From assembly GCA_017457005.1 (NCBI GenBank), contig JAFTII010000031.1, forward strand, positions 746 through 64,745: a stretch of 64,000 nucleotides of DNA, in the 5' to 3' direction. A model generated the notes under the pieces. The model was not told the DNA's origin and did not search any database. It worked only from the letters and a program-made list of their open reading frames with translations. This stretch comes from Alphaproteobacteria bacterium (GTDB lineage Bacteria; Pseudomonadota; Alphaproteobacteria; RF32; CAG-239). How positions within the stretch are numbered: the first letter of the stretch is position 1; each line of letters opens with the position of its first letter. Of this stretch, positions 9,316 through 30,262 are shown piece after piece. Both the position numbers and the translations under genes were made by a program.

Positions 9316-9316
9316 A

Positions 9317-9871: not shown

Positions 9872-10377
9872 GGCAATACTCCTTCAAGTGTCGGGGCTTG
9901 TAAACCCTCTACCTTGTCTTTAACGTTTTCTACATTTTCTTTAACATCTTCTACTTTGTCTTTAAAATCATCTACTTTATCTTTAATCTCTTGCCCTTTA
10001 TCTTTAACTTGATCCATAGAGCTTTTAACCGATGTCTTGAGCATATTTATTCTAGCCTGTTCCCTCTTTATAGTCTCCTCAAGTCTGGCTTTTAATCTTT
10101 TACGATGTTCGTCCATCTCTGCCTTACGCTCTTTGAAAGCTTGTAGTTTTTGTTTTATTTTGGCGCCTTTATTACCATCTCCTAATTTACCGACTTTGTT
10201 ACTGACAAATTGTTGAGCTTTTGTGGTGAATTGTTCATATTTTTCAGTAACATTTTTTAAGATGCCATTTGCGGTATCCAAAACGTTAACAATCCAATCC
10301 GTAGAGGCATAACAATTTTTGCCGCTGAACATCAGCAACATCGCTACTGCAACAAATATGGCCCCTTTCTTTAACAT
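9868..10377 (-). CDS. Secreted 169-aa coiled-coil protein carrying the same DKVEDVK heptad repeat as the 927-aa neighbour
   Basis: Signal peptide MLKKGAIFVAVAMLLMFSG. Contains repeats KDKVDDFKDKVEDVKENVENVKDKVE, encoded by 21-nt DNA tandem repeats. Confidence 0.5.
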   Translation of the reverse strand: MLKKGAIFVAVAMLLMFSGKNCYASTDWIVNVLDTANGILKNVTEKYEQFTTKAQQFVSNKVGKLGDGNKGAKIKQKLQAFKERKAEMDEHRKRLKARLEETIKREQARINMLKTSVKSSMDQVKDKGQEIKDKVDDFKDKVEDVKENVENVKDKVEGLQAPTLEGVLP

Positions 10378-10390
10378 TTATAGTCTCCGG

Positions 10391-13117
10391 TTAGATGTTA
10401 ACATTTTTCCGATTATTAATATCCGTAGAATAAAAATTATGTATTTCGGATATGTTAATCATACTTGATAATATCTCTATCAAACGTATAGAGTTTTTAG
10501 CTGTTTGAGCAGACAATTTAATTAATTCACTTTGAAGTTTATTGATATCAGATCCTTCCGCACCTTCAGATGATGCGGGGCTTCCGCTTGCGCCACCGAA
10601 TTTTGCAGTCAAAACATCTTTTTGAACATCCTCAAAGTCTCCGGCTTCAGATTTTAACTTAAATGCGGTTTCTAAGTAATGTTTATTAATTTCATGCAAA
10701 ATTTGATCTCTTACCAAAACAAAGCCATCTTCCTCTTTTAAATTTGCAAGATAGTTTTTACATTCTTCCAATTTTGCAGAATCTTGAGCTGTTTCACTGT
10801 CTAATCCGCAAACCAAAGCCATTGTCGGAGGAATAATAAAAGTATCATCCGATGATGTTCCGTTATCTTTACCTCTATTGCCGGAAATTTTAATTTTTTT
10901 CAGTTCTTCTTCGCTATAATTTCTAAAAACAAAATTTTGATAATTAAAAATATTTGTCATTGCCAACTGCGAACTATATATTTTCAGTAATGAATTTATT
11001 TGCATATCTATACCTTTAGCTAATTCTACAATATTAGCATAGGCATCACTTTTGTGGGAATCAGCCGCATACAAAACCGGTTCAACATGTTTTTCTTCAA
11101 AAGCATCAGCATCATTTATAAGTTTGAACGCATCTGCAATAACTGCCGCGGCATAACGTGCCAAAACATCCATATAGAATTTCGGCGCTTCCGAAATTGA
11201 ATCGGTTTGCGCTTTTAGTCGCTCCTCATTATATTTAACTAAACATGCATTTATGACACCTTTTTCCAGAGCATCATTTGAGCTAATATTTCCACAAGAC
11301 ATTCCCATATTTTGAGGGATAATAAACGTACCATTTACGTCTGTACCGCCATCAGGAAGGCTTAGCGCCATCGCAAAAGCCATATTATCTTGATGATGTA
11401 TATTTGCGGCAATTGTTATACTATCTTTTTCCAACATGGACTTTTGAAAAGGTTTTAACGATTGTTTCTTATCGTCAATGACCCCTTGCATTGTTTTAAT
11501 TGAAGAAAGTGTCTCATCTTTCATCGGAATTTCAGCACTGACATCTAAGTCTTTATCTATTGTTAGGACCTTTGGCGCTTCTTCTGTTGTTTCTGTGGTA
11601 TCTTCAGCTTCTGTTTCTTCAGAAGCTGAAGCTTCTTCCGTCTCACTATCCGGAGTTTGGAACGGACTACGCAAACCTGTGCTACCTTCTTCAACATCTG
11701 CCGGAAGAGGGACAGAAAAACCTAACTCGTCATCCGAGGTCTCATCTTCCGTGTCTTCTATTTCTTCTTCTGATTTGATATCTTCCGGTATTACAAGCTC
11801 ATTCGTTATTGGCGGTAATACTCCTAAGTTTGCATTTGGCATATTTAAAGTATTCATCGGAGCATTGCCATAAGGCATCGGTGTGTTTATGCTTCCGGTG
11901 GTAGAATTTCTAAACCCTCTGCGACTAGTTGGCACTCTGTTATTGTTGGTTGTTCTTGGTTTGTTAAGTGTAGTACCGGATGTATTTGTTGAAGTTTGGG
12001 GAGTGATTGAAGATGATGTATCTTCTGTGACGGTACTTTCTTCCGTTTCTTCAGAAGTAGGATCTTCTCCTTTCGTTTCACTATCCGGAGTTTGGAACGG
12101 ACTGCGTAAACCTATAGTCTTTCCTTCAACATCTGTTGGAAGAGGAACAGAAAAACCTAACTCATCATCAGCTGTATCATCTTCATCATCAGTATCTTCA
12201 TCATCCGGAAGAGGTGTCTCATTTATTGGCGGCAACATTTCTTCCCCCTCAACAATAGGCAAGCCTAAAGTGTTTGTCGGAGTATCACCATAAGGTAATG
12301 GTGTGCTTATTTCTCCGCCGGAAGGAGTTATGAAACTATTGCGACTGGGGGTTATGGGCTTAGAGCTACCGCTTGAGCCTGAATTGCTAGGCATCATGGG
12401 CGGAGTTGCTTCGGAGGTTTCCGGCGAAACCTCAGGAACAGTCGTTTGTGGGGTGGGTTCTAATACAGGTTCTTCTTCCTCGCCTAAGGCTCCTTTTGCC
12501 ATATCGGCGTAATCTTCAACCTTATCCTTAATATCTTTTGCTTGCTCTATATAGCCTTCAGCTTGAGATTTAACATCTTCTACCTTGTCTTTGATATCTT
12601 CTACTTTGTCTTTTACGTCTTCTACTTTATCTTTGACATTTTGTACAGTTGATTTAGCCTGCTCCACATAGCCTTCAGCTTGAGATTTTATGTCTTCTAC
12701 CTTATTTTTGACATCTTCTACTTTGTCTTTGACCTCATCAACCTTATCTTTAACATCTTGTACTTTTTCTTCTATTTGACTTTTATATTTATCAAATTCT
12801 TTTTTGTAGTTTTCAGCTTTTTCTTTATAGTCATTAACTTTTTTAATTGCGGCGTCTATCTTTTTCTTATTCTCTACGACATATTCTTGCACTGTTGCTT
12901 TTGCGGTTCCAATTGCAGCAGAAGTTTTTTGCACGGTTTTCATCGCGTTGATTACTGTTTGAGACTGCTGAATTTGGGTAAACCATTGCTTGATGGTTTT
13001 AATAAAGCTCATTGAATCCAAGGCAGGCAATTGAGCATAAGCACCAGAAGGAAAACTAATACACATAAAACCAGCTAAAAACATTCCGATGATGTATGTT
13101 TTTGTTTTATTTTTCAT
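10391..13117 (-). CDS. Secreted repeat protein (about 908 aa) with four parts: coiled-coil heptad repeats, a duplicated acidic Pro-rich block, a Ser/Thr/Pro-rich linker and a duplicated Cys-containing C-terminal module; unknown function
   Basis: Start ATG at 13117 (MKNKTKTYIIGMFLAGFMCISFPSGAYAQ) after GGGAGGGTGAA. Repeats VEDVKDKVEDIK; duplicated DDELGFSVPLPxDVE...GLRSPFQTPDSET; C-terminal duplicated FIIPQNMGMSCG / FIIPPTMALVCG modules. No TM helices. Confidence 0.55.
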   Translation of the reverse strand: MKNKTKTYIIGMFLAGFMCISFPSGAYAQLPALDSMSFIKTIKQWFTQIQQSQTVINAMKTVQKTSAAIGTAKATVQEYVVENKKKIDAAIKKVNDYKEKAENYKKEFDKYKSQIEEKVQDVKDKVDEVKDKVEDVKNKVEDIKSQAEGYVEQAKSTVQNVKDKVEDVKDKVEDIKDKVEDVKSQAEGYIEQAKDIKDKVEDYADMAKGALGEEEEPVLEPTPQTTVPEVSPETSEATPPMMPSNSGSSGSSKPITPSRNSFITPSGGEISTPLPYGDTPTNTLGLPIVEGEEMLPPINETPLPDDEDTDDEDDTADDELGFSVPLPTDVEGKTIGLRSPFQTPDSETKGEDPTSEETEESTVTEDTSSSITPQTSTNTSGTTLNKPRTTNNNRVPTSRRGFRNSTTGSINTPMPYGNAPMNTLNMPNANLGVLPPITNELVIPEDIKSEEEIEDTEDETSDDELGFSVPLPADVEEGSTGLRSPFQTPDSETEEASASEETEAEDTTETTEEAPKVLTIDKDLDVSAEIPMKDETLSSIKTMQGVIDDKKQSLKPFQKSMLEKDSITIAANIHHQDNMAFAMALSLPDGGTDVNGTFIIPQNMGMSCGNISSNDALEKGVINACLVKYNEERLKAQTDSISEAPKFYMDVLARYAAAVIADAFKLINDADAFEEKHVEPVLYAADSHKSDAYANIVELAKGIDMQINSLLKIYSSQLAMTNIFNYQNFVFRNYSEEELKKIKISGNRGKDNGTSSDDTFIIPPTMALVCGLDSETAQDSAKLEECKNYLANLKEEDGFVLVRDQILHEINKHYLETAFKLKSEAGDFEDVQKDVLTAKFGGASGSPASSEGAEGSDINKLQSELIKLSAQTAKNSIRLIEILSSMINISEIHNFYSTDINNRKNVNI

Positions 13118-13192
13118 TTCACCCTCCCGCAAGACTTGATAGTTTAGTATATCATAGTCCACTATTTTAACCAAGAAAATAACTTCATTTTG

Positions 13193-15622
13193 CTAAATAT
13201 TTAAATATTTTGTAACAAAGTTATCTTCTCCATATTCTTTAATAAGTTCTTCAACCAGCAAAACATTTTTGCGGCCGGAATTATACAAGCGCAAATAAGG
13301 TCCTAAGCCGCTCAAATCCACATCAAGTATTACTGACTCTCCGGTTGCCGGACGAGATAATAAAATAGCATAAGGAAAATCACGATAACTTTTACCGAAA
13401 ATAAAATCTATTTCTGAGCCAGTTAAATTCCAGTTTTCGTAGTCTTCTACCGTTGCCTGAGGATTACGGAAAAAGATAACGGTTTGACATTGTCCGCGAA
13501 TAACTTCTCCAACGCCCAAACGGTCAATAATATTCGGCTGCTGGAATGCACACAAATATGCCTGACGTTTTTTACGACCTTCTTGCAAACCAATTACAAA
13601 ATAATCTCTAAACATCGGGTGCTTAAGCATTGGAGCCGTTTCATCAATCATGATAAGCGACGGAACACCGGTTTCTCCGGTTTCTGATTGGATACGGTGC
13701 ATAATATAGCTGATAACAGCAGGAGCTAACGTTTCATCCTCAAAAATATGAGTAAAATCAAATGCCATAAACCGTTTTGCTTTAAGGTCCAAACTATCAG
13801 TATCGCCGTTAAAAATTTTTCCGTATTGATCAGGATTAACCCACTTAAACAACTCCCTACGCATATTACCGGTAGGCGAAAAACAACTTTTATATAAGTT
13901 TGTCATCAGGCGTTCACTGGGACGTAAATAATCAAAAGCGGTTGTAACCGCACGAGCTATTTCTTTCTCAGAAATGGCGTCATCAACTAATGTGATAGCT
14001 CGCATCCATCTTCTTAAAAAAGCGCGGTTATTAGCATTATTTTCACAGTCAAACGGATTAAGCGAAACATTTTTTTCATCGCCCTCAAAACCAATGTATG
14101 CGCCCCCGATAGAACGAGTAAATATTTCTGCACCGCGGTGTCTGTCAAAGAAGAATACCTTTAAGTCATGATGGCGCATGGCCTGACCTGCCAAAAAGGT
14201 AAGCAACGTTGTCTTACCTTGACCGGTAGGACCGATAATACAACAGTGGGCAACAGCAGAATCATCGCCGGAAACATGGAACTGAAACCGGTATGCTGAT
14301 CCTGATGTTGTACGAAATACTGTAATAGCTCCCTTACCCCAGTCACTTTTAGCGAATCCTTCTGACGGTTTATCAAAACAAATTGCTGCTGCTACTACGC
14401 GGGACAAATAACGATAGGTCCGAGGCAGTACTTCATAAGTCGGAAACTGATTAAAAAACGTGGCTTGAGCAACCCAACCTTCTCTAACCGGGGTAACACC
14501 GAATAATCGGCAAATTCGTTGAACTTCACTTTCGGCAAATTCAATATCATCTTTGGTATCGCCTTGTAAAAGTATTGCCATTGCATATTCGGTCAGTGAT
14601 TGGTGATTGGCATCGCTATCTTCTATTGCTCCCAAAACTTCACTATATTGGTTGATTACATCTGAAGAAAAACTGGTCATTAAAGCCATACGTTGTTGTT
14701 GCATAAGCAACGCACGAGCTTGCGGCTTGAATATCGGACGAATATTGTGCAACAATACCAGCTCACTATCTATAGAGAGCAAGGAAGTTATCATGCTTTC
14801 ATCCATATAATCTCCGGATGAACGAATCCCCATTGCTGCCGCATATTTTTCCTTATCGCCGCTAAAAAAGCGGATAAGACCGTTTTCTCCGGTAAAATGA
14901 ATATGATCAGATGTCAAAAGCTCATTAAGATGATAGCCTTCCGCACTACCGATTTTTGGTTGAGGGCGGGTTATCGGACTACATATTTTTGCGTAAACAG
15001 AAAGAGGACCATCTTCTGCAGGACTTCCTTCAGCTTCAAAAAGTGTGGTTACACCATAATCATTAAGAGTGGCTATCAATGATTGAGAGGCATAATTTAA
15101 ATCTTTGAGATTATCATCTCTATCCACTACCGAAAGAACTATATAGTGAGAATTACTATATACACGGCTAAGATTAGAACTCCATGTATTGTCAATGTTC
15201 TCCAACAAAGCATTGTCAAAGTCTTTTTTATTTTCTTCCAGTGCCACACGTTCACGCAAAGTTATAATTCGGCAAGTTATTTGTAAGTCAGACATTCCGT
15301 CAATCCATGCTTTTCGGGCTTCCATCATGGATATAACTTTTTCATCAGTGACAAAGGCCAAATCAACTCCCGTTACTTTAAAAACACGCGCTAACGAACC
15401 GTTATAGCAACGGATAGTCATGCCATCGGACAACAACTTATTAAAAGGCAAAAAGTCCGAAACACGAGACTCTCTGGGATGTGGCAACACATAGTGCCCA
15501 AACTTGGTTGCCCAAAAACCGGCAAATGCCGCAGCAGAGACGAATCCTATTGCAGCAACAATAACTTCTAACGAACTTAAGCCTTGCACGAAAGTGCTAA
15601 AAAAATCAAAATCAGGGTGCAA
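13193..15622 (-). CDS. virB4: VirB4/TrbE/CagE-family T4SS ATPase
   Basis: 809 aa with N-terminal hydrophobic segments. Walker A GPTGQGKTT, DEAW-like box IMIDETAPML, and C-terminal RKKRQAYLCAFQQPNIIDRL (the RKxN...TQS..D motif). Overlaps virB3 by 11 nt. Confidence 0.85.
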   Translation of the reverse strand: MHPDFDFFSTFVQGLSSLEVIVAAIGFVSAAAFAGFWATKFGHYVLPHPRESRVSDFLPFNKLLSDGMTIRCYNGSLARVFKVTGVDLAFVTDEKVISMMEARKAWIDGMSDLQITCRIITLRERVALEENKKDFDNALLENIDNTWSSNLSRVYSNSHYIVLSVVDRDDNLKDLNYASQSLIATLNDYGVTTLFEAEGSPAEDGPLSVYAKICSPITRPQPKIGSAEGYHLNELLTSDHIHFTGENGLIRFFSGDKEKYAAAMGIRSSGDYMDESMITSLLSIDSELVLLHNIRPIFKPQARALLMQQQRMALMTSFSSDVINQYSEVLGAIEDSDANHQSLTEYAMAILLQGDTKDDIEFAESEVQRICRLFGVTPVREGWVAQATFFNQFPTYEVLPRTYRYLSRVVAAAICFDKPSEGFAKSDWGKGAITVFRTTSGSAYRFQFHVSGDDSAVAHCCIIGPTGQGKTTLLTFLAGQAMRHHDLKVFFFDRHRGAEIFTRSIGGAYIGFEGDEKNVSLNPFDCENNANNRAFLRRWMRAITLVDDAISEKEIARAVTTAFDYLRPSERLMTNLYKSCFSPTGNMRRELFKWVNPDQYGKIFNGDTDSLDLKAKRFMAFDFTHIFEDETLAPAVISYIMHRIQSETGETGVPSLIMIDETAPMLKHPMFRDYFVIGLQEGRKKRQAYLCAFQQPNIIDRLGVGEVIRGQCQTVIFFRNPQATVEDYENWNLTGSEIDFIFGKSYRDFPYAILLSRPATGESVILDVDLSGLGPYLRLYNSGRKNVLLVEELIKEYGEDNFVTKYLNI

Positions 15623-15902
15623 ATTTATTCCCCTTTTCTTTATATAGGTTATTAGATGTTTTGGCAGACTGACCGTAAGCCTGAATCATTGCGGAAACAT
15701 GAGGCTCTTTAGCCCCGATAGCTATGCAAACCAGATGCCCGATAACCAGTGAGCCCATAAACCACAGTGGGTTAGCATTAATTGTTCCGACACACATAAA
15801 CATTATCGGAAACTGGATACCCATATTAAGCAGAACCGGTAAAAACGGCCCCCACATAATTTTAGGCGGATTAGCTACGGCTTTGAGAATAATTTCACGC
15901 AT
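15612..15902 (-). CDS. virB3: VirB3/TrbD-like small membrane protein
   Basis: 96 aa with two hydrophobic helices, immediately upstream of and overlapping virB4. Size and position are typical of VirB3. Confidence 0.6.
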   Translation of the reverse strand: MREIILKAVANPPKIMWGPFLPVLLNMGIQFPIMFMCVGTINANPLWFMGSLVIGHLVCIAIGAKEPHVSAMIQAYGQSAKTSNNLYKEKGNKFAP

Positions 15903-16121: not shown

Positions 16122-18389
16122 TTAAAACAATACATTAACTAATCCGCCTAAAGTATTAAGCGCGTTATCAATTCCGTTCTTAATATTACCCATTGAATTG
16201 ATAGCTTTTTCAATACCGGCTTTGGTTTTGGTTGTTTCTTCACCATATTCGCCTTCAATGCCCCAAGTATTAGCTATCTGTTGATCTGCACTTGCTGTTC
16301 TATCCGCAATACCTTTAAGAGACTGCATTGCTTGATCTATATTAGAGCTAATCTGTCCTAATGAAGTCATCATAGCTTTGGGCTTGAGCGGATTTAAATT
16401 TTTGATTAATGACATAATGTTATTAACATTAGTAACAATACCTTCTCCAGCCGCCCCTATACCAACAGCGGTTTGTTTTACTGTGTTAATAGTATCTGTG
16501 GCATTTTTGATAACATTCATAATATCGTTTACGCAATCCATAATTTTACCACTCTTGCAGAAACCGCTTTTTTCATCAACCGGAACTTCTTCTTCCGGTA
16601 CTTCTTCTATATTAGGCAAGACTTCAGCCTTAGGCGGAGTTGGTTCATATATGGCGACAGGTTCAACGTATTCGTAATCGGCATCCGACAATACTTTTTT
16701 GATAGAATGTTTTTCCGTTTTATCGCCAAAAGAATCCAATGGTTTTGCAATAATTTCTTGCTTATCTTCAGCATTCGGATAAACCATATATTCTATCAGA
16801 CGTCCCATATTGGCGACCAAAAACAAACCGATAGAGATGTTAGCAAACCATTTCCAACTGATTTTATTAAAAACAGCAGCATAAGCAAACCCGACAAGAC
16901 CAAAGGCCGCCAGCAAATATGCTACAGGACGTAATCCGGCCAAAATTCTGGCTGCACGACGAGTAACAGAAGTAAAGACATCGTTATTTTTTGCATATAC
17001 AGTTTCATCAAGCTCTCCTTCTGATGCCATAAAATAATAGCCTTTTTCTTCATCGCTCAGCTTAGCAAATTCTGCGTCATACGCCTCTTTGGCAGCTTCA
17101 AGATCTTTATTAGCTTGATCAAGCCTATCTTTTAGTGTATCAGCCAAAGCGCAGAATTCTTCTCCGGTCATCATTGTGCCATCAGGGGTTCTATAGTATT
17201 TACTTTTATCCGCAGCTGCTTTACAGTTTGCAACAGCTTGGTCATACTGATTTTGCAGATTATTTACCTGAGAAGTCAGACTTTCATAATTACTTTTCTT
17301 TCCCTTCATATCTGCGGTCGGATTTTCCAGTAGAAAGGCATTTAGCTCTTCATCTGCCTTAAGTTTTTTGGCATAAGCTTCATCAGCTTTTGCTTTAAGC
17401 TCTGCTAATTTCTCTTTACTTTCTTCCATAGCAGCGCAAGCTTCTTTTTGTCCATGCGCACAAAGGAATGCAGCATCATAATAATCACTCTCGGTCTTTT
17501 GATAATCCTGCACAGCTTTGTTATAATCGTTATTTGCTTTGTCTGCGGCACTTTGTTTTTTTGCATATTCTTTAGCTATTTCTTCAGCACTTTTTTTTGG
17601 CTTATCAGAAGTTTCATCTTCATTAGAAGTGTCGGAATCTGAAGATCCTGATGATGTATCTTTAGGCTTTTCATCAGGATATTTGGAATAATAGTCATTT
17701 AGGCGATTTTGAGCCTCTTTGATATCATTTTCTGCCTTTGTCATTTTTTCTTTAGCATTTTCACACTTTTGCTTATCATAGCCACTACCGCTACATTTTT
17801 TAGCGATATTTTCTTTTGCTTTTTCCAAATCTTCTTGTGCGTTTTTTAAATCTTTTTCAGCATCTGCTTTAAAATCTTTAACATTATCAGCTGCCTTATT
17901 ATATGCTTTTTGCGCTTTATTTTTAGTGCTTTCTGCCTCTTTAAGAGCTTGTTTTAACTCATCTGTCTTATTGGCGGTCTCTAGATTTTTTCTTCCTGTT
18001 TCTGCAGCTTTATTTACCGCGTCAATCATAGCTTGCTTTTCTCCTTGAAGCTTAGCTAATTTTGCATGTTTCTCTGCACAACTTTCTTTACAGTTATCAA
18101 CTTCTTTTTGGGCATTTGCTATATCTTGATCATACTTCTGATTAGCCTTCGCCATTCCCTCTTGCTTAAATTTCTCAACCTGCTCATCTATGGCTTTTTC
18201 CACTTTATCCAAGGCCGCTTTTTTTTCATTATAATTTTGCTCTGCCTTGTCTAAGTCTGTTTTGGCAGAATTAAGTGCCGTTTCAACATCATCCATTGTC
18301 TCTTTTGCCGCCAAAGCACTTCCTGTAGGAACAGCAAGAAATACTAAAGCCAGTAATGTAATAAGGCTAAATGTTTTGATGTTTTTCAT
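16122..18389 (-). CDS. Fusion protein (about 755 aa): signal peptide, ~450-aa Lys/Glu-rich coiled coil, central VirB2-like two-helix pilin domain, ~220-aa C-terminal domain
   Basis: Start ATG at 18389 (MKNIKTFSLITLLALVFLAVPTGSALA) after AGGAGAA. Central segment LLAAFGLVGFAYAAVFNKISWKWFANISIGLFLVANMG matches the FGLVGVAFGAIFGKINWKWF motif of the two downstream VirB2-like genes. Confidence 0.5.
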   Translation of the reverse strand: MKNIKTFSLITLLALVFLAVPTGSALAAKETMDDVETALNSAKTDLDKAEQNYNEKKAALDKVEKAIDEQVEKFKQEGMAKANQKYDQDIANAQKEVDNCKESCAEKHAKLAKLQGEKQAMIDAVNKAAETGRKNLETANKTDELKQALKEAESTKNKAQKAYNKAADNVKDFKADAEKDLKNAQEDLEKAKENIAKKCSGSGYDKQKCENAKEKMTKAENDIKEAQNRLNDYYSKYPDEKPKDTSSGSSDSDTSNEDETSDKPKKSAEEIAKEYAKKQSAADKANNDYNKAVQDYQKTESDYYDAAFLCAHGQKEACAAMEESKEKLAELKAKADEAYAKKLKADEELNAFLLENPTADMKGKKSNYESLTSQVNNLQNQYDQAVANCKAAADKSKYYRTPDGTMMTGEEFCALADTLKDRLDQANKDLEAAKEAYDAEFAKLSDEEKGYYFMASEGELDETVYAKNNDVFTSVTRRAARILAGLRPVAYLLAAFGLVGFAYAAVFNKISWKWFANISIGLFLVANMGRLIEYMVYPNAEDKQEIIAKPLDSFGDKTEKHSIKKVLSDADYEYVEPVAIYEPTPPKAEVLPNIEEVPEEEVPVDEKSGFCKSGKIMDCVNDIMNVIKNATDTINTVKQTAVGIGAAGEGIVTNVNNIMSLIKNLNPLKPKAMMTSLGQISSNIDQAMQSLKGIADRTASADQQIANTWGIEGEYGEETTKTKAGIEKAINSMGNIKNGIDNALNTLGGLVNVLF

Positions 18390-18544
18390 CGCTGTTCTCC
18401 TGTAGTACAAGGCTCTATAAAATAGAGCATACGAATCCCTTTTGATTTATTATAACACATAAATTACTTATAAAGTGTTACAGTTTTTTGATTTTTTTGA
18501 AGGAATTTTCTAAAACTAAGGCAACTGAATTTATATTAGACTGC

Positions 18545-19306
18545 CTATTCTGCCGGTACTGCCGGTGTTTCTTGATCAACCGTAACACGCCTTGTTTCAC
18601 CCAGACCCGTTTCAAAAGTATCACCATAGAAAATTGTCGTTGTATCACCGGTAATATAAGTTACAATACCTCCGGCTGCCGCCAAAGCTGCCAACCCGAC
18701 AACAAGAGCTGCAAACCATTTCCAATTAATTTTGCCAAAGATAGCTCCAAAAGCCACACCAACAAGACCAAAACCGCCAACAATAAAGATAACAATCTTT
18801 AAATCTTTAAAAGTCTTAATTCCCTTATATAAAGCTAAGGTCAGAAGGGATGTTGTTGACTCTGCAAATGTTACAAAATTGGAACTGTCTGTATTCAGAG
18901 TATCTGTAATCATATTTTGGGTAAAGCCTTTGCAGCCGATAATCATATCAACAAGTTCTCCGGTACTGGCAATAACCACCAAAGAAATAACTATCGCTCC
19001 AAGCCACTTCCAGTTTAAGTTACCAAAGAATCCTCCGACAGCAACTCCGAGGATACCAAAGCCGGCAACAATATAGATTAAATCTCTAAGACCATTATAA
19101 ATTTTTATTCCGGTACCAACCAAACCCTCAAACAAGCCGCTTGAAGTGATACAACCGGTCATGGAAGTGTCTTGAGAGTTGCCTCCGGAATTTGTACCAC
19201 CGGATGCCGGTGGGGGAGTATCCTCAGCAAACACGGGGGCAACATAAGCACCAAAAGCAAAAGACAATGCGATAAGCATATATAGATATCTTAACCCTTT
19301 CATCAT
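18545..19306 (-). CDS. Tandem-duplicated VirB2/TrbC-like pilin (two pilin units in one polypeptide)
   Basis: Likely start MMKGLRY at 19306 after GGAGG. Signal peptide, then two repeats of the hydrophobic helix, K/N-x-NWKW(F/L) loop, hydrophobic helix pattern (GFGILGVAVGGFFGNLNWKWLGAIVISLVVIA and GGFGLVGVAFGAIFGKINWKWFAALVVGLAALA). Confidence 0.5.
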   Translation of the reverse strand: MMKGLRYLYMLIALSFAFGAYVAPVFAEDTPPPASGGTNSGGNSQDTSMTGCITSSGLFEGLVGTGIKIYNGLRDLIYIVAGFGILGVAVGGFFGNLNWKWLGAIVISLVVIASTGELVDMIIGCKGFTQNMITDTLNTDSSNFVTFAESTTSLLTLALYKGIKTFKDLKIVIFIVGGFGLVGVAFGAIFGKINWKWFAALVVGLAALAAAGGIVTYITGDTTTIFYGDTFETGLGETRRVTVDQETPAVPAE

Positions 19307-19434
19307 TGCCTCCGTATTATATGTTTGTGAAATTATGTTATTAAATTTCAACCAATTTTAATTGATTGAGGTTTAATAACACCAAATTAGAAAGTAATCC
19401 GGAGAGCCGGCAAGCTCTCCGGATCTTTATAATA

Positions 19435-19854
19435 CTATTCTCCTTCTCCGCCTTCAGTGTCTCCACCAGAATCAGCGGTAACGCCAATAGCGGCACCGGA
19501 ACTAGCACCAAAAGTATCGCCATAACGACCGGTTGTTGCATCACCGGTTGCGTAAGTTACGATAGCACCGGCAGCTGCCAAGATTGCCAAACCTACGGCA
19601 AGACCGGCAAACCATTTCCAGTTAATCTTACCAAAGATAGCTCCGAAAGCCACACCGACAAGACCAAAACCACCAACAATAAAGATAATGGTTCTTACGG
19701 CTCTAAAGGTATTAACACCCTTAGATGCAGCCAAAGACATTATTGAAGTATTTGAGTTGGCAGTGCCTTGAGCTAAAGCATCGCCGGACATTCCGAGCAG
19801 AGCAAAAACTGCTACCATAAAAAATGTCCAAAAATTGTTTTTAATAAATCGCAT
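19435..19854 (-). CDS. virB2: VirB2/TrbC-like T4SS pilin (single unit, 139 aa)
   Basis: Signal peptide ending ALAQG, then two Gly-rich hydrophobic helices separated by KINWKWF, resembling the ISWMFG loop of Agrobacterium VirB2. AGGAGAA Shine-Dalgarno. First gene of the minus-strand operon. Confidence 0.55.
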   Translation of the reverse strand: MRFIKNNFWTFFMVAVFALLGMSGDALAQGTANSNTSIMSLAASKGVNTFRAVRTIIFIVGGFGLVGVAFGAIFGKINWKWFAGLAVGLAILAAAGAIVTYATGDATTGRYGDTFGASSGAAIGVTADSGGDTEGGEGE

Positions 19855-20151: not shown

Positions 20152-21690
20152 ATGCAAAAAACGGCTTTAAAAACTTTTGTTTATAGTTTTTCGGTGTCTT
20201 TGTTTGCGATTTTTGTTGCAAACGGAGCATATTGGCATGTTCGCCCCTCGGAAAGCAAGATCAAAATCCCTAATAAAAACATTACCTTATTTCTTAAATC
20301 TTCTCCTGCCGGCACTGCGGCTCCGGTCAAAAAAATTGCTCTTAATGTGTTACCGGAAATTGCCGTTTTGCCACAAGAAATGCCCGATGAAGAAATTATA
20401 ATGGCAGATACAGATTTGCCTTTAATTCCTTTTGAAGATAATATTTTGATACCGGAGGAAAATAATACCCCTCAAATATTACCTGAAAAGCCGAAAAAGA
20501 TAAAAACTGCGGCTTTAATACCGCCTCCTTTAGTCAAAAACAGCGAAGAAACCTCTCCACCGGCAATTTTTGCTCCGGAATCAAACGAAAAAATCGCCAT
20601 CCCCTTGGAAGCGCCAAAATCTACAATAAGCAAATTAAACATTGCAAAAAAAGAAAAGCCGGTAAAGGAACCTGCTCCTCAACCGTCAATTGCCGTTAAA
20701 ACTCCGGAACCTTTACTACCCTTAGAAAGAAACCCCAACCTGATGTATTTGGCTGACAGTACAGTCAAAATCGGAAATCCGGAAACATTAAGCCATGTAG
20801 CAACAACCGAAGTTAATATTCCGGTCAACAGTATCAGCGCAGAAACCGCAAACACCCCTAAAGAACCCGAAAAACAAAGAAACTGGCAACAGATGTCAGA
20901 AAAACAAAAAAGCTCCGATTCACCATGGTTGGTTGCTAAAGCAAGCGGTGCAGTGCAAAATCTGAAGCTTAAAGAGGAAAGTTTCCAAAAGCCCATTGAC
21001 GTTGCTCAAAATCAACCGGAGGGTATTAAAGTGGCTACTAACACTGTCCAAAACTTGTTAATCCCCATACCGGATGACATCATGGAAGAAGAAAACCTTG
21101 TTCCTAAGCTATCTATTGATGATGACAAAAAAAATACCGAAAAAAAAGAAAATGTTACGGCATTACCGGCAGAAGAATCGAAAAAGGAAGTTGCAACAAC
21201 CGAAAAGCCTAAAAAGGGGAATATTTTATCCTCTCTGTCTTCTATATTTGACAAAGGCAACAATAAAAATAAAGAAAAAGGCTCGGATAAAAAGCCCAAT
21301 ATCATAAATTCCATCAAGAAAAAGTTGTCAGAATCATCTGCCGGAAAAATAATGCCAAAAGAAATGCGGTTATCTTTCCAACCTAATCGTGCAGAAATAT
21401 CAGGACAAACCCTTCGTTGGGTACAGGCCTTTGCAACCAATGTGGCAAAAAGCTCTTCAACACAGTTGGAAATACGCATTGACGGAACAACAACCACAAA
21501 CTTGCAACAAAAGCGGCTAAACCTTCTCTATAATATATTGCGTAATAAAGGTGTTGAAGAACATAAAATAGACACAGTATTCACGCAAAGAGAAGCAAAT
21601 TCTTTTATTTTGAGATTAGCCCCCATAAAAAAAGAGGAAATCGTAAACGGATATAATAAAATCACAGCAACAAAGTACAAGCAATGGTAA
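20152..21690 (+). CDS. Pro/Lys-rich exported protein (512 aa), first gene of the pilus-side operon; unknown function
   Basis: N-terminal hydrophobic segment, long PEPL/PKKP low-complexity region, structured C-terminal ~130 aa. No family recognised. Confidence 0.45.
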   Translation: MQKTALKTFVYSFSVSLFAIFVANGAYWHVRPSESKIKIPNKNITLFLKSSPAGTAAPVKKIALNVLPEIAVLPQEMPDEEIIMADTDLPLIPFEDNILIPEENNTPQILPEKPKKIKTAALIPPPLVKNSEETSPPAIFAPESNEKIAIPLEAPKSTISKLNIAKKEKPVKEPAPQPSIAVKTPEPLLPLERNPNLMYLADSTVKIGNPETLSHVATTEVNIPVNSISAETANTPKEPEKQRNWQQMSEKQKSSDSPWLVAKASGAVQNLKLKEESFQKPIDVAQNQPEGIKVATNTVQNLLIPIPDDIMEEENLVPKLSIDDDKKNTEKKENVTALPAEESKKEVATTEKPKKGNILSSLSSIFDKGNNKNKEKGSDKKPNIINSIKKKLSESSAGKIMPKEMRLSFQPNRAEISGQTLRWVQAFATNVAKSSSTQLEIRIDGTTTTNLQQKRLNLLYNILRNKGVEEHKIDTVFTQREANSFILRLAPIKKEEIVNGYNKITATKYKQW

Positions 21691-21731
21691 TAAGTCTTTG
21701 GAGAAGCTTGATTATTTAAAATTCAGTATGT

Positions 21732-22460
21732 ATGATAGGAACAAAAATGATAAATTACAAACAAGGAACTGCCAAAATGAAAACTAAAATATTACAAAAC
21801 ATATCACTCTCAGCGCTTCTGCTCCTAGCCGGATGTGCATATAATGATATATTTGGCGCAAGCAATACTTATGTTGAGCAAGCTCCTGATGTGGCCATTG
21901 TTGTGCCGCCACAAACATCAGGACATACAAAATCGCCAATGTTGGCAGACAATAACCCTATTAACTACCGTCAGGTTGCAGCAGATTATAGAGAATTCGG
22001 CGAAAGAACTCCATCTGACCAAACCATTGTTACCAGCGGATTTGGAAGTAATTTATCAGCTTCTATCCCTCCAACAATTGAAGAAGAAGTAAGCGACTAC
22101 GAAAATGAAATTAATGCCGCTATCGCAGAAGCAGAAACGGAAGCAGAAGAAGCCTTGACCGCCGAAGCTAAACAATCTGCAACCGATGATCCGGTTGAAG
22201 ACTGGTTAGCCGAAGAAGGAACAACTTTGAAAGGGTTGTTAACAGATTGGAGCGAACGCGCCGGTTGGAGATTGATTTGGAATACAAATCGTAATTATAC
22301 ACTTTCTGCCGGAGCTATGTTTAGAGGCAGATTTGCAGATGTAAGCTCTGCATTAATAAGAACTTTTGCAAGAGCAAGGCCTGCTCCCATAGCAACATTC
22401 TATAAAGGTAATAGAGTTTTGGTTGTTGAAACCATGGAGGACGAGAATGCATACAATTAA
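21732..22460 (+). CDS. Lipoprotein with TcpQ/PilL-like C-terminal domain (secretin-associated pilotin-like protein of type IVb pili)
   Basis: Lipobox LLLLAGCA. C-terminus GTTLKGLLTDWSERAGWRLIWNTNRNYTLSAGAMFRGRFADVSSALIRTF resembles the TcpQ/PilL2 domain (GW.L.W....Y.L pattern). Directly precedes the secretin gene and overlaps it. Confidence 0.5.
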   Translation: MIGTKMINYKQGTAKMKTKILQNISLSALLLLAGCAYNDIFGASNTYVEQAPDVAIVVPPQTSGHTKSPMLADNNPINYRQVAADYREFGERTPSDQTIVTSGFGSNLSASIPPTIEEEVSDYENEINAAIAEAETEAEEALTAEAKQSATDDPVEDWLAEEGTTLKGLLTDWSERAGWRLIWNTNRNYTLSAGAMFRGRFADVSSALIRTFARARPAPIATFYKGNRVLVVETMEDENAYN

Positions 22461-24048
22461 TTGGAAAAAATTCAGTTTAGGATTATTAGCTGCAGTAATG
22501 GCGGCTTCCTGTTCTATTTCAACAAAAATGGATGCCACAATTGAACGTGAAGTTGAGGCAGCTTCAAAACTCAAAGAAACAGCTAAAGTTCCAACCGCTT
22601 TGGCCAACCAAGACCTTATAAAAGTAAAAGATGATATTTGGCTTGGCGATACCAGCGAGATAGAATATGAAGGAGAGCCTTTACCTGCTTATTTGGATGG
22701 CAAAAACGGCATCACTTTGGTTAGCAACCGACCGATTACTCTCTTTGAAATCGGAGATATGATTAATAAAACAACCTCCCTCGGTGTTCGTTATGCTCCG
22801 CAATTGGAATCTGACGTTAAAAGTAAAGGCGCTGCCAATAAGCCTACAGCAGAGGCCGTAAATTCTGATTGGGCCGAACCAGATAAAATGCTGGTTTCTT
22901 ATCAGGGACCTTTGAGCGGATTGTTAGATGAGATATCTTCTCGCTTCGGAATTTGGTGGAAATATGAAAATAAAGAAATTTATTTTTATAAGTTTATTAC
23001 CAAAACATTTGTAATTTACAGTTTGCCAACCAAACCGAATATGTCTGTTAATGTAGGCGGAAGCCAAAGCGGCGGTGGCGGCAGTTCTTCCGTTAACTTG
23101 AGTTCATCCGTAGAAGTGGAAATGTGGAGCAATATTGAAAAAAGCATAAACGCCATTATCGGAGAAGGATCTAAGTTAACAACATCTCCGGCGGACGGAA
23201 CCATAACTTTAACAGCAACTCCAAGCGATATTAAAAAGGTGGCAAAGTTTGTAAACGAACAAAATATTCGTTTATCAAGACAAGTTGCAATCAGCGTTAA
23301 AGTTTTGCAAGTATCCGTTACCGACACCAACAACTATGGTTTGGACTTAAAAGCAACATTTAATGACGGAGTTACGGCATTTAATGTGGCTGGTTCAACA
23401 AGTGTTGCGTCTTCAGGCGGATTAACCAACGGCTTGTCACTCGGCATCTTGAAAAAGAATTGGACTGCGGATGCAGCCATAAAAGCTCTTTCACAACGCA
23501 ATAGCACAGCCTTAGTTACCAGCGGTACGGTTACAACACTTAATAACAAACCGGCACCGATTCAAGTTACGCAAAAGCAAAATTATATTGCCGAAATGAC
23601 CAAAACAAATAGCGGTACAGACGGAAATAACTATGATATATCAGTTACTACAGAAGAAATAGAAACCGGATTTACGTTAGATGTATTGCCCCGCATTTTG
23701 GAACATGGTCGGATGTTAATTATGTTTAACATGACTTTGTCTGATTTGGTTGCTTTGGAAAAAGTTGAATTCGGCTCATCTGATGAAAACCAATATATTC
23801 AAAACCCAAAAGTGGAATCCAGAGCATTCTCACAAGAAGTTGCTTTGTTATCAGGAGAATCCTTAATTTTGACCGGATTTGAAAAAGTTGATAACTCTAC
23901 TTCTAAAGAAGGAACTGGCTCTGCGGATAATTCTTTGTTAGGCGGTTTTGCTAATGCAGAAAAAGATCGCAGTATCTTGGTTATTATCTTAACACCGGTG
24001 GTATTGGAATCGCCTTTGACACCTGAAACCAGAATGAATATGAACTAG
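22447..24048 (+). CDS. Lipoprotein secretin (type IVb pilus secretin, PilN/TcpC/BfpB-like)
   Basis: ATG at 22447 after GGAGG. Lipobox AASCS. C-terminal secretin domain ending RSILVIILTPVV (the canonical secretin C-terminal block); Gly/Ser-rich linker mid-protein. Confidence 0.75.
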   Translation: MHTINWKKFSLGLLAAVMAASCSISTKMDATIEREVEAASKLKETAKVPTALANQDLIKVKDDIWLGDTSEIEYEGEPLPAYLDGKNGITLVSNRPITLFEIGDMINKTTSLGVRYAPQLESDVKSKGAANKPTAEAVNSDWAEPDKMLVSYQGPLSGLLDEISSRFGIWWKYENKEIYFYKFITKTFVIYSLPTKPNMSVNVGGSQSGGGGSSSVNLSSSVEVEMWSNIEKSINAIIGEGSKLTTSPADGTITLTATPSDIKKVAKFVNEQNIRLSRQVAISVKVLQVSVTDTNNYGLDLKATFNDGVTAFNVAGSTSVASSGGLTNGLSLGILKKNWTADAAIKALSQRNSTALVTSGTVTTLNNKPAPIQVTQKQNYIAEMTKTNSGTDGNNYDISVTTEEIETGFTLDVLPRILEHGRMLIMFNMTLSDLVALEKVEFGSSDENQYIQNPKVESRAFSQEVALLSGESLILTGFEKVDNSTSKEGTGSADNSLLGGFANAEKDRSILVIILTPVVLESPLTPETRMNMN

Positions 24049-24067
24049 AAGCAAAAGGAGAACCCCT

Positions 24068-25348
24068 GTGCTTGAAGATGCCAAACTATTAGATGATGAT
24101 ATTGACGGCGCAACAGCTCAGCGCTCTTGGGGTACGTCAATTACAGTTGATGGTGTTCAATATGCCACCAGTCTGTTTTGGCAGCCGTTACAAAACGCAA
24201 GCGACCCGTTTCAGGAAGTGGAAGAAGCTTCTGCCGGTGTATTGGAAGGCGCAGACTTATTTTGTATTAAAGGCGGAAAAGCTCCTCAATTCGGTATATG
24301 TGTATCTCAGGAAGGGTATAAAAGCGGAGAAAATGTTGCCGCAGTCGCATTAGCAACCGCATTATCTAATGTAGGCTCATTTATCGCCGTATTTAAGACC
24401 AATGAAGGTTGGTGGTACACTTGTATTCGTAATGATATTATTCTTTCTGACGGTGATATGCTGTTCTTAACAGAAGAAGAAGCTAAAGAACAGTTTATGT
24501 CTATGTTGGCAGTTCCGGATTGGGGCAAAAAAATTGCACCCAAAGAATGGGGATTTGAAGACACTGAAGATGTTGATTTGGCCGAAATTTTAATTAGAGG
24601 TGCAAAATCAAGATTACAGAAGATTAAAGCGTTAAGAGGTACAAAGCTTTTATTAGTAGTGGCAATATCTGCCGTTGTCGGAATCTGGTTAATATCAAGC
24701 TTGGTTGATAAATTGTTTTTAACCCCAACCGTGAGACCTGTAGTGGTACCAATAAAACCTAAAGTGGCGCCTAAAGCAGCTCCGGTGGTTGAAGAACCAA
24801 AACCGTGGGAGAAAGTAGCTGACCCCAAAACAATTATGGAAAATTGCTATCAAGGAATAACTGATTTGAATCAGATTCTTCCGCCGGGTTGGAATATCGG
24901 AAATATTGCTTGCTCAGGGACAGCTGTGGCTACAAGTTGGGTTAGAAGTATCGGGCGAGTTTCTTGGGCGAAAAAAGCTCTTGATAAATCGGGACTAAAT
25001 TTTTCAGGATATACTTTTTCTTCCAATGGCGGAAATTTATCGGCCACATTACCGATATCTAAAGCTGAAGAAAAAATGTCTCCTCCTAAATATACTCTTG
25101 TAGATCTGCAAAATGAGCTTAACGACAAGTTTCAGGCAATAGGGGTTGCAATATCTTTATCTTCAGATACAGAAAAAACACCGGCCGGAAAAATGTACAG
25201 AAGACTGAATTTTTCTTTAAAGTCTGAATATAACCCACTAACTTGGATTGAAATGTTAACAAAATATTCAGGACTTCGGATTAAAATGATAACCTATTAT
25301 CCTAACGACAAAACTTGGCAATATGAGGGAGCTATCTATGTTTTGTAA
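24068..25348 (+). CDS. Bitopic inner-membrane pilus assembly protein (R64 PilO / BfpC-like architecture)
   Basis: 426 aa with a ~190-aa cytoplasmic domain, single TM (LLLVVAISAVVGIWLISSLV) and a periplasmic domain. Position matches pilO in R64/PAPI-1 pil operons, and the size is similar to the ~430 aa I recall for R64 PilO. Confidence 0.45.
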   Translation: MLEDAKLLDDDIDGATAQRSWGTSITVDGVQYATSLFWQPLQNASDPFQEVEEASAGVLEGADLFCIKGGKAPQFGICVSQEGYKSGENVAAVALATALSNVGSFIAVFKTNEGWWYTCIRNDIILSDGDMLFLTEEEAKEQFMSMLAVPDWGKKIAPKEWGFEDTEDVDLAEILIRGAKSRLQKIKALRGTKLLLVVAISAVVGIWLISSLVDKLFLTPTVRPVVVPIKPKVAPKAAPVVEEPKPWEKVADPKTIMENCYQGITDLNQILPPGWNIGNIACSGTAVATSWVRSIGRVSWAKKALDKSGLNFSGYTFSSNGGNLSATLPISKAEEKMSPPKYTLVDLQNELNDKFQAIGVAISLSSDTEKTPAGKMYRRLNFSLKSEYNPLTWIEMLTKYSGLRIKMITYYPNDKTWQYEGAIYVL

Positions 25349-26684
25349 AATTAAGAACTTTGTTACCGTATCAGCTTTAGCTTTAATAGTTTCTGCTACT
25401 AATTACGCAAATGCACAAGGATTGGTCACTCTTTCTGAAGAAGCTATGTTTGATGAAACTGAAGCTCCAAAAGAAAAAGAAACTCCTAAACCGGAGCTTA
25501 ACTCCGATGGTGGAGATGATGCACTAGGCAATATCGCTCCCAAAGCCGCCACTCCGGCTCCGATTGCAGAAAAAACAACACCGGAAGTTCCGGTTCAATC
25601 CCTCAAACAAGATACTAAAGAATCGACTAAATACCCGTCAGTTAACCCTGAAGCAATCCCTTCTTTTGAAGATATTGCAACAGAAGAAGAGAATCTTGTT
25701 GATAGTGAAGTTTTTCAAAAAATGTCTGATATTGAAAAACAAACAGCATTGTTAAATTTGGAATTGCGAAAAGAACGAGTAAGAAATGAAATTGAGGCTC
25801 TAAAAAATCAACGCCGACAAGCTGAACAGCAAGAAAAAGATGCCGAAGAAGAAAAAATTCGCAAACAAAAAGAATGGGAAAAAGAGCAAGAACGTAAAAT
25901 TTTGGAAGAACAACAGAAATTACGTGAATTAGATATCCAATTTGAAAAATATCGTCAGGAAAGACTGCTTAATTCCTATAAGAATGAAATGCTTAAAGCA
26001 AATCAGGAATGGATTGCGCATGAAAGCGGTTTATATAAGCAAATCAATGATTTGAAAGCTGAAAAACAGGCTTTGCTTAATGAAATGAAGAATAAATTGC
26101 AAAAAATAAAAAGCAACGCTTCTTCAATCCCTGCAAAAGCTAAAGAGTTGGTTGATGCATATAAAAAAGAACTGGAAAATAAAGATGTTCAAATATCTGT
26201 GTTGAGAGCTAGAAATGAAGCTCAAGAGAGAGAATTAGAAAAGAAGAATCCGTTTGCAGAAGGTGCATCCGAAGCAACCACAACTACCGGCTCACAAGCA
26301 ACTACTCCGGCAGAAGTAGAAGTTGAAGAATTAAAATTAATTAATTTGTATGCGGTAATGGAAATAAGAGGACAAAACGGAGAACTGATTGCCAAATTAA
26401 TTAATAAAGACGGAATGCCTTTTTATGTGAAAAAAGGTACAATGTTGCAGAGCGGGCATACTATCTCGGAAATTACATCTACATACGTAAAAGCCGAAAA
26501 AGATGGTACTGCTGACTATTTATACTTTGCAGCAGGTGGAATATTGCCTAAAGAGCAACCGTCAAATACTATTAAACAAAAGATATCCGAAGAGAACAAA
26601 GACGACAATTCTTCAGGAGGAACAACATCTTTTGTTGCCAGTACGGGGGTTCCCGGCATGGGTAAATCTATGATGGCCAGGTAA
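25323..26684 (+). CDS. Secreted protein with an acidic coiled coil and a PilP/GspC-HR-like C-terminal beta domain
   Basis: Signal peptide ending ANAQG. Lys/Glu-rich coiled coil. C-terminus LINLYAVMEIRGQNGELIAKLINKDGMPFYVKKGTMLQSGHTISEI resembles PilP secretin-binding domains. Confidence 0.45.
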   Translation: MRELSMFCKIKNFVTVSALALIVSATNYANAQGLVTLSEEAMFDETEAPKEKETPKPELNSDGGDDALGNIAPKAATPAPIAEKTTPEVPVQSLKQDTKESTKYPSVNPEAIPSFEDIATEEENLVDSEVFQKMSDIEKQTALLNLELRKERVRNEIEALKNQRRQAEQQEKDAEEEKIRKQKEWEKEQERKILEEQQKLRELDIQFEKYRQERLLNSYKNEMLKANQEWIAHESGLYKQINDLKAEKQALLNEMKNKLQKIKSNASSIPAKAKELVDAYKKELENKDVQISVLRARNEAQERELEKKNPFAEGASEATTTTGSQATTPAEVEVEELKLINLYAVMEIRGQNGELIAKLINKDGMPFYVKKGTMLQSGHTISEITSTYVKAEKDGTADYLYFAAGGILPKEQPSNTIKQKISEENKDDNSSGGTTSFVASTGVPGMGKSMMAR

Positions 26685-26691
26685 ATAAACA

Positions 26692-28383: not shown

Positions 28384-28393
28384 GAGATAAAAA

Positions 28394-29527: not shown

Positions 29528-29529
29528 AA

Positions 29530-30144: not shown

Positions 30145-30262
30145 GGGATTATAACTTTGGCAATAAAAAAACTAATAAATTATACTTTCGGTCAAGTATT
30201 TTATGACTAAGGATAAGATTGTTCATAATTTATTAATCTGTTATAGTTAAACTATACACAAA

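Follow-up and report, generated by a model that had tools for sequence, protein, structure and literature searches.

Can two pilin subunits enter a pilus as one polypeptide? This question is raised by a locus in a 64,000-nucleotide stretch of DNA from an Alphaproteobacteria bacterium (GenBank assembly GCA_017457005.1, contig JAFTII010000031.1; the whole stretch is hereafter called the window). Three genes on the reverse strand, g1, g2 and g3, encode VirB2-type pilins of a type IV secretion system (T4SS), and the second of them, g2, carries two pilin units. We give a probability of about one half to the reading that g2 encodes a genuine, selected hetero-tandem VirB2-type pilin, B-A', which would be extracted and polymerised as one two-protomer piece. 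Here A and B are, together with C, the three pilin orthogroups of related loci, and A' is the A-type unit of g2.

The two-unit gene g2

The features that carry this reading are the following (aa, amino acids; a slash marks the predicted signal-peptide cleavage site).

19435 to 19854, minus strand: g1 (pilin A), 139 aa, a short pilin of the TrbC/VirB2 type whose signal peptide reads ...GDALA/QG; Pfam TrbC, 33.5 bits.
18545 to 19306, minus strand: g2, tandem pilin B-A', 253 aa if translated from the ATG at 19306, 252 aa if from that at 19303.
19229 to 19306, minus strand: predicted signal peptide of g2 (aa 1-26, ...APVFA/ED), with a hydrophobic segment at aa 7-28.
18896 to 19141, minus strand: unit 1, the B-type pilin core (aa ~56-137), helix-loop(GNLNWKW)-helix with C52 and C125 and the tail ...MITDTL.
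18842 to 18895, minus strand: linker (aa 138-155, NTDSSNFVTFAESTTSLL), polar, lacking a hydrophobic signal-peptide core, a Met and a ribosome-binding site.
18641 to 18841, minus strand: unit 2, or A', a complete A-type mature domain (aa 156-222), alpha1 followed by helix-loop(GKINWKW)-helix.
18545 to 18640, minus strand: C-terminal tail of A' (aa 223-253) and stop codon, with a YGDTF motif common to g1 and the A protein of the nearest species found (locus L013).

A first-pass annotation had read g1 as a VirB2-like pilin and g2 as two such units in one polypeptide, and both readings were confirmed. In the g1 product, a signal peptide precedes two helices, the first of them Gly-rich, which are joined by a KINWKW loop (a signal peptide and two transmembrane (TM) segments by hydropathy), and g2 displays two hairpin loops, GNLNWKW (aa 95-101) and GKINWKW (aa 191-197). 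Thus, the parts expected of a pilin are present, namely a signal peptide with predicted cleavage, two hydrophobic helices and a short basic loop (KINWKW or NLNWKW). Both g1 and g2 (40.1 bits, in two stretches) exceed the 27.9-bit gathering cut-off of Pfam PF04956 (TrbC/VirB2). Scanned singly, unit 1 (22.6 bits, E 1.2e-4) and unit 2 (25.3 bits, E 1.8e-5) are each significant, yet fall under that cut-off. The gene order VirB2-VirB3-VirB4, by which TrbC/VirB2 pilins are recognised, is also found here, and the order from g1 to VirB4 is matched in related loci. The Pfam matches and the site directly upstream of VirB3 and VirB4 indicate that the units are VirB2-type pilin domains, as had been proposed, and not generic glycine-zipper domains with two TM segments.

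The ATG at 19303 lies 5 nucleotides (nt) after a GGAGG, and this Shine-Dalgarno spacing suggests that translation of g2 probably starts at this second ATG. The resulting 252-aa product agrees with the gene calls in other assemblies. By hydropathy, g2 has a signal peptide and four TM segments, and its linker contains nothing that resembles a signal peptide. The two termini and the linker are predicted to be periplasmic, and both basic loops cytoplasmic. An extra signal-peptide helix would invert unit 2, so its absence is a requirement of a functional fusion; a domain added without its signal peptide preserves the membrane topology. The linker has no Met, Shine-Dalgarno sequence or hydrophobic stretch, so unit 2 is not made or exported on its own; on the same grounds, plus the missing signal peptide, an internal translation start for unit 2 was ruled out.

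Two AlphaFold2 (AF2) runs were made on g2, one with a B-rich multiple sequence alignment (MSA) and one with an A-only MSA. Unit 1 was modelled as a helical hairpin with a predicted local distance difference test (pLDDT) score of 80-87, and unit 2 as helices 144-189 and 195-219 with a pLDDT of 75-83. Confidence was confined to the hairpin covered by the MSA, and over the whole model the mean pLDDT was 56-57. MAFFT piled all homologous hairpins onto one unit whatever the input, and no MSA spanned both units. A Foldseek search of the PDB with this low-confidence model, aimed at solved T4SS pilins such as T-pilus VirB2, F TraA and pKM101 TraM, gave no match with E < 1, only chance helical matches, and helical hairpins discriminate poorly.

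Could the double unit have been created by assembly or sequencing, either from a collapsed repeat or from a missed stop between two single genes? A repeated core such as this one is, in principle, a possible source of assembly error. However, the open reading frame (ORF) was found in four other independent assemblies (L001-L004). These come from different samples, include contigs of the scaffold type and of the k141 type, and match the window at 94-98.6% nt identity. All four encode the same 252-aa protein, P0001, which is 99% identical to the g2 product, and two of their contigs (73 kb and 54 kb) keep the gene order of the window. The copy in L001 differs from that of the window by 12 nt with the frame intact. 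In addition, the two units and g1 are merely 73-78% identical in DNA, with a longest shared run of 16 nt, which makes repeat collapse implausible, and unit 2 lacks a start codon, a ribosome-binding site and a signal peptide of its own. We consider an artefact very improbable.

The same comparisons revealed selection on g2. At 90% identity, its cluster comprises 9 protein variants on 16 contigs, including NCBI MBQ9732379.1 ("hypothetical protein"), and these variants and the window copy (10 sequences) display 7 variable residues, with no frameshift and no stop. The 12 differences from L001 comprise 9 synonymous and 3 non-synonymous changes, a ratio of non-synonymous to synonymous rates (dN/dS) of ~0.11; for unit 2 alone the counts are 3 and 2. 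Among strains, dN/dS is ~0.1-0.2. These values show that g2 is under purifying selection.

Origin of the fusion within a three-pilin system

Where did the second unit come from? Homologues were searched for among 5.8 billion clustered proteins (best 120 of 310 matches inspected) and, with an exhaustive HMMER search, among 1.84 billion protein representatives (best 150 of 471 matches inspected). A genome scan with one genome per species, in which an alignment of A-type units served as the query, resulted in 324 confirmed loci. From these, 80 species loci were kept, ORFs were called in all of them, and hairpins were counted with a hidden Markov model built from the family.

In 70 of the 80 loci, a triad of pilin genes A-B-C stands ahead of VirB3-VirB4. 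A is short, B has a variable soluble extension before its hairpin (70-350 aa), and C is 340-2060 aa long and contains a single hairpin, embedded within the protein. A best-match analysis resolved these genes into three clean orthogroups. The best matches of g1 were first-position genes (40/40) and those of g3 third-position genes (40/40). Unit 1 of g2 matched second-position (B) genes in 40 of 40 cases, and unit 2 matched first-position (A) genes in 39 of 40. The three units had previously been seen as one paralogue array; this view does not hold, since units 1 and 2 fall in different, widely conserved orthogroups, B and A.

The end of B proved to be a site at which additions are found. Its C-terminal motif [IV][TQ][DN]TL is conserved, and many B orthologues continue for 10-80 aa beyond it, suggesting that additions there are tolerated. 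B-type units also differ from VirB2 and TrbC by a conserved pair of cysteines that flanks the hairpin. In g2 these are C52 (~19151-19153) and C125 (~18932-18934), which are nearly invariant in close B homologues and stand on either side of both helices. The pair occurs in the B-type genes of 28 of the 70 loci, the sub-clade of the window, and is absent from A-type pilins. By analogy, it may act as a disulfide staple of the hairpin ends, in a role like that of cyclisation in VirB2 and TrbC.

The best matches to g2 among the 1.84 billion representatives (~55-76% identity) align at aa ~27-137 and have their own C-terminus there. The junction is clearest in L013, which is 75-79% identical in nt and fully syntenic with the window. 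B of L013 ends ...FTQDMIADTLKE-stop (...ADTLKE, then the stop), exactly at the start of the g2 linker. The window instead reads ...FTQNMITDTL, then NTDSSNFVTFAESTTSLL, then a complete A-type mature domain with alpha1, hairpin and YGDTF tail, and the element upstream of C comes ~300 nt later than in L013. The stop of B in L013 and the A-type domain beyond that point in the window identify g2 as B plus A'. As judged from sequence, g2 is shown to be a mature A-type copy that was grafted, minus its signal-peptide core, directly onto the C-terminus of B.

The first-pass annotation had also noted high DNA identity among the pilin regions, and this was borne out. Identity is 78% over 226 nt between g1 and unit 2 (E 2e-50), rising to ~90-93% in the ~90-nt core that the annotation had quoted; it is 77% over 79 nt between g1 and unit 1, and 72.6% over 117 nt between units 1 and 2. 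All of these are far beyond chance. What had been concluded from them, a recent duplication, is contradicted by the divergence. The synonymous divergence (dS) between g1 and unit 2 is 0.87, and they share 72% aa identity, against 84% between g1 and its orthologue in L013. Thus, the A' copy is either old or fast-evolving.

Nor did the units behave as the substrate for gene conversion or recombination that had been proposed. The longest identical run is 16 nt, and the polymorphisms of unit 2 are scattered points with no g1-like tract. Five of the 12 strain differences in g2 do fall within 44 nt of unit 2 (alpha1 region), and 4 of them are like g1. This tract is just 30/44 identical to g1, which points to point changes, with g1 merely polarising ancestral and derived states. 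The dS of the 29-codon core is lower than that of its flanks (0.47 from 7 synonymous changes, against 1.1 from 32); purifying or codon constraint explains this equally well. Neither the comparison of g1 with unit 2 nor that between strains gave evidence for ongoing gene conversion.

An old copy might also be a passenger, a neutral or decaying remnant of the duplication with no function of its own. The fusion is confined to one species-level cluster, and g1 is closer to its orthologue in L013 than to A', as such a fate would allow. Against this, a copy with a dS of ~0.9 retains the expected residue at each of the 21 positions where 70 aligned A-type pilins do not vary. Its signal-peptide core is absent, as correct topology demands, and the dN/dS among strains and the intact frames of the 10 variants speak for constraint. 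A passenger is in our view improbable.

One piece, two pilins or a membrane protein

What would the product of such a fusion do? Based on these findings, we propose the following. An A-type mature domain was joined in frame to the end of B, the polar linker of ~18 aa replacing its signal peptide. Cleavage of the B signal peptide would then leave an inner-membrane protein with four TM segments, in which two correctly oriented pilin hairpins stand in series. This mature product of ~23 kDa would be extracted and polymerised as one piece, taking up the places of two adjacent protomers in the pilus or stalk. Through its A' half it would make A-type lattice contacts, so that a specialised B module would be covalently tied, in a fixed 1:1 ratio, to the A polymer. 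In VirB2 and TraA pilins both termini are periplasmic in the membrane and lie on the outer surface in the pilus. A tether from the C-terminus of one subunit to the N-terminus of its neighbour is therefore geometrically plausible. A covalent two-protomer minor pilin is the best reading of g2, its polymerisation being a prediction from sequence. It carries a directly testable consequence, the junction-spanning tryptic peptide GFTQNMITDTLNTDSSNFVTFAESTTSLLTLALYK.

Other proteins with several VirB2 units in one chain were found. P0166 (216 aa, in three assemblies) has two units, A' followed by a C-type unit, and occupies the third position in the same type of locus. It belongs to an A'-C family (P0166, P0249, P0375-P0379) that comprises 7 or more clusters sharing 48-76% identity; every member has two hairpins, a Gly/Ser-rich linker and the same neighbours before VirB3-VirB4. 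P0186 (308 aa) has three units with G/S/T-rich linkers. P0149 (399 aa; L012 4760-5959, NCBI GCA_045655105.1, contig JAZOOQ010000066.1) has six A-like hairpins, that is, 12 TM segments after the signal peptide, with linkers of 2-10 aa at 3 of its 5 junctions; its neighbour is a single TrbC gene, and VirB4 is not close by. A further relative, P0238, has two units, and P0203 and P0248 (~800 aa) have two hairpins ~130 aa apart. These tandem relatives are unannotated ("hypothetical protein") save P0186, which JGI names a VirB2 pilin.

The A'-C family, P0186 and P0149 resemble g2 in having tandem hairpins in one chain with no internal signal peptide; no signal-peptide-like hydrophobic segment was found in the linkers of the multi-unit proteins. 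In the four families with soluble linkers, the junction is the mature N-terminus of the downstream unit. The A'-C family shares the T4SS locus type of g2, yet in it A' is N-terminal to a C-type unit, whereas in g2 A' is C-terminal to B. We read these differences in the fused units and in their order as a sign of independent origins. Furthermore, a fusion that persists among proteins as little as 48% identical is an argument for a function of tandem pilins.

Several observations weigh against g2 being polymerised as one piece. The fusion itself is rare: B-A' was found in 0 of the 80 related species loci and, among the best 120 of 310 and best 150 of 471 matches, in one species-level cluster only, and so the system can generally do without it. 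The AF2 models are informative on single hairpins and not on the packing of both units. Hydropathy revealed no multi-TM VirB6 candidate in the interval between VirB4 and VirB8. Without a polytopic VirB6 in the operon, the assembly pathway may differ from that of model systems. Finally, RP4 TrbC and Ti VirB2 are trimmed at both ends and cyclised, and such proteolytic processing in the family makes cleavage of the linker a live option.

Cleavage of the linker into two pilins is indeed the main rival. In this scenario g2 would encode a polyprotein precursor in which the second TM helix of B exports A', and a periplasmic protease cuts the linker to release B and A' in equal amounts. The linker ends in a signal-peptidase-like ...VTFA/ES that aligns with the g1 site ...DALA/QG, a resemblance that also counts against the one-piece reading. 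Its NFVTF is weakly like the NFWTF that opens the g1 signal peptide, which could be chance, and the highly conserved normal C-terminus of B, ...ITDTLK, could serve as a recognition site. However, the putative site lies ~24 residues past the end of the TM helix, which is far for signal peptidase I, and no TraF-like peptidase was present among the window ORFs scanned. The independent tandem families, with Gly/Ser-rich or 2-10-aa linkers, display junctions that look like tethers and not like cleavage sites. We regard a cleaved precursor as possible, though doubtful.

The four-TM product could also stay in the membrane without polymerising, as part of the inner-membrane platform (perhaps as a substitute for VirB6) or as a regulator or chaperone of the pilin pool. 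The missing VirB6 candidate fits this idea, as does P0149, whose short linkers make it look like a polytopic protein with 12 TM segments. Meanwhile, both units of g2 keep the conserved residues specific to pilins, relatives without the fusion share the operon, so that the fusion fills no general gap, and a VirB6 may be encoded elsewhere. This role seems unlikely.

The reading of B-A' as a pre-linked pair of protomers extends, more tentatively, to the whole clade. Its T4SS pili or stalks could conceivably be heteropolymers of a major pilin and modular VirB2 proteins, the latter comprising giants of up to ~2000 aa that are anchored by one embedded hairpin and concatemers of 2-6 hairpins that enter as pre-linked protomers.

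The surrounding locus and comparison with known systems

Which organism and which machinery does this pilin belong to? The remaining features of the operon discussed here are the following.

19396 to 19425, minus strand: terminator-like stem-loop of 13 bp (7 G-C pairs) in the sequence directly past the g1 stop.
18432 to 18497, minus strand: intergenic element upstream of g3 with TATAAT-like hexamers; identity to L013 is 91% here and 75-79% in the flanking genes.
16122 to 18389, minus strand: g3, pilin C, 755 aa from an ATG with a good ribosome-binding site; TrbC 26 bits, E 1e-5.
15612 to 15902, minus strand: VirB3-like protein, 96 aa, two TM segments; the Pfam VirB3 match is weak (E 0.018), and its position and 96-aa size are conserved in related loci.
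13193 to 15622, minus strand: VirB4 ATPase, 809 aa; Pfam CagE_TrbE_VirB 57 bits, NCBIfam VirB4_CagE E 1e-115.

The gene order on this strand is g1-g2-g3-VirB3-VirB4, followed by two VirB8 genes and VirB9. Downstream of VirB4, the region 798-13174 (minus strand) encodes large non-membrane ORFs of 927, 169, 184, 425 and 1293 aa, which are coiled-coil-like or have no Pfam match, in addition to the two VirB8 paralogues and a 536-aa VirB9/CagX-like protein. Neither a polytopic VirB6-like protein nor VirB5, VirB10 or VirD4 was recognised in the operon.

Pilin A is probably the major pilin, as suggested by its uniform size and by the conserved hairpin behind its stop. A-type homologues are uniformly 110-124 aa long (best 120 of 1619 matches), and all those listed carry a precomputed PF04956 match. 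Most related loci have a strong hairpin behind the A gene (median minimum free energy -22 kcal/mol, against -9.7 for shuffles). The one behind g1 would fit high expression of A with attenuated read-through. NCBIfam gave no match for the pilin genes, and a search of all PDB chains with the g1 sequence and with an A-type alignment profile gave no pilin match.

The 3' end of g1 (19435-19500, minus strand) is a separate matter. Its last ~15 residues are almost wholly different from those of L001 (5447-5869), the tails reading GVTADSGGDTEGGEGE and GVTTGETTGDVPAEGGL in two strains otherwise ~97% identical, and 22 of the 29 nucleotide differences between the two genes fall within the last 70 nt. Such a pattern suggests an exposed tail that is hypervariable between strains.

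Pilin C contributes a fourth VirB2-like hairpin to the locus, which had been overlooked earlier. The g3 product has a signal peptide, a coiled-coil-like region of ~430 aa rich in K, E and A, the hairpin at aa 463-526 (nt 16812-17003) and a conserved C-terminal region of ~230 aa. C-type proteins have a conserved segment past the hairpin in common, and Pfam found no domain except TrbC in 32 giant C proteins. The giants may be pilus-anchored adhesins or tip proteins. The conserved element ahead of g3 may act in regulation, for instance as a promoter.

The host is an uncultured gut or rumen alphaproteobacterium. Almost all of the 80 kept loci come from gut, rumen or faecal metagenome-assembled genomes (MAGs), labelled Alphaproteobacteria, "uncultured Azospirillum sp.", Azospirillaceae or Ca. 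Scatocola (Rhodospirillales in the NCBI taxonomy). The window (36.8% GC) is chromosomal, encoding YidC, ribosomal protein S1, GpsA, a DnaJ-domain (DnaJ/CbpA-type) protein and cytidylate kinase. The first-pass annotation had thought of Anaplasmataceae; with gut and rumen MAGs as relatives and ordinary free-living housekeeping genes in the window, the host is neither of that family nor of Rickettsiales. The chromosomal T4SS in which B-A' sits is a core feature of this gut and rumen Alphaproteobacteria clade.

A complete-looking type IVb pilus (T4bP) cluster lies at 20152-30928 (plus strand), divergent from the T4SS pilin genes. It encodes a TcpQ/PilL-like protein, a PilN-type secretin, a T2SSE ATPase, a T2SSF platform protein and two PilS/bundlin-type pilins, and is syntenic in the related loci read (L001, L005 and L009). 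The pairing of T4bP and T4SS recalls that of IncI plasmids and PAPI-1; in the window it is chromosomal. Farther away, 59022-61894 (plus strand) holds a three-gene cluster of a von Willebrand factor A (vWA) protein, a PP2C phosphatase and a Ser/Thr kinase. A separate T2SSE-family ATPase of 321 aa is encoded among housekeeping genes at 56877-57842 (plus strand), ~37 kb from the T4SS operon; it could be VirB11-like or pilus-related.

Collectively, these data uncover an uncharacterised three-pilin T4SS (A, B and giant C) in ~70 uncultured gut alphaproteobacterial species, which adjoins a type IVb pilus cluster in the loci read. This points to a surface structure that likely matters for colonisation or cell-cell contact in the gut. 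The extraction of VirB2 from the inner membrane and its addition to the growing pilus are still only a model, and a 2025 nomenclature review notes that the VirB6-platform model remains untested (PMC12857230). A selected covalent pilin dimer would constrain that assembly in two ways: two hairpins would have to be extracted jointly, and their positions would have to lie within the span of a linker of ~20-35 aa. Proteins with 3 and 6 units add a like constraint. If true, the entry of pre-linked protomers is a mode of VirB2 assembly not described for any T4SS, and natural concatemers would fix lattice neighbours and provide a set for structural work. The finding leaves T4SS biology standing and constrains models of pilus assembly.

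How does this system compare with those already known? The TrbC/VirB2 pilins (Agrobacterium VirB2, RP4 TrbC and R388 TrwL) share with g1 and g2 the signal peptide, the short N-terminal helix, the two-helix hairpin with a basic and aromatic loop and the gene position directly upstream of virB3-virB4, and g1 and g2 pass the Pfam cut-off for this family. In contrast, g1 and the A-type pilins have no sequence-level match to solved pilin chains. To our knowledge, TrbC/VirB2 members have one hairpin per polypeptide; g2 has two, from different orthogroups, joined by a linker. The Rickettsiales rvh-type T4SS has duplicated VirB8 and several VirB2 genes, and this duplication of components is found in the window as well, with three pilin genes, four hairpins and two VirB8 paralogues; we take it as resemblance, not membership.

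Arrays of VirB2 as separate genes are known from the paralogues of Anaplasmataceae, trwL1-8 of Bartonella and the 2-11 genes of Patescibacteria (PMC12102498, PMC12857230). As in the window, divergent paralogues stand side by side in them, which implies heteropolymeric or variable pili. However, the members of those arrays are separate genes with their own signal peptides, whereas the units of g2 are covalently joined, and A, B and C are ancient, functionally distinct orthogroups in ~70 species and not recent lineage-specific amplifications. The literature, of which our coverage is incomplete, yielded only such multi-gene arrays and no tandem within one polypeptide, in keeping with the earlier remark that a covalent tandem pilin had not been described; for T4SS of the gut clade, too, it yielded multi-gene VirB2 arrays only. 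Within the same incomplete coverage we found no description of VirB2 hairpins embedded in giant proteins, which appear to be undescribed.

The fusion of a type IV pilin module to a functional module in PilB and PilC of Streptococcus sanguinis offers a further parallel. There, as in the variable N- and C-terminal additions of B and C, an extra module is carried on a polymerisation module. The S. sanguinis proteins belong to an unrelated filament superfamily with the type IV pilin fold, not the VirB2 hairpin, and what has been added in g2 is another polymerisation module.

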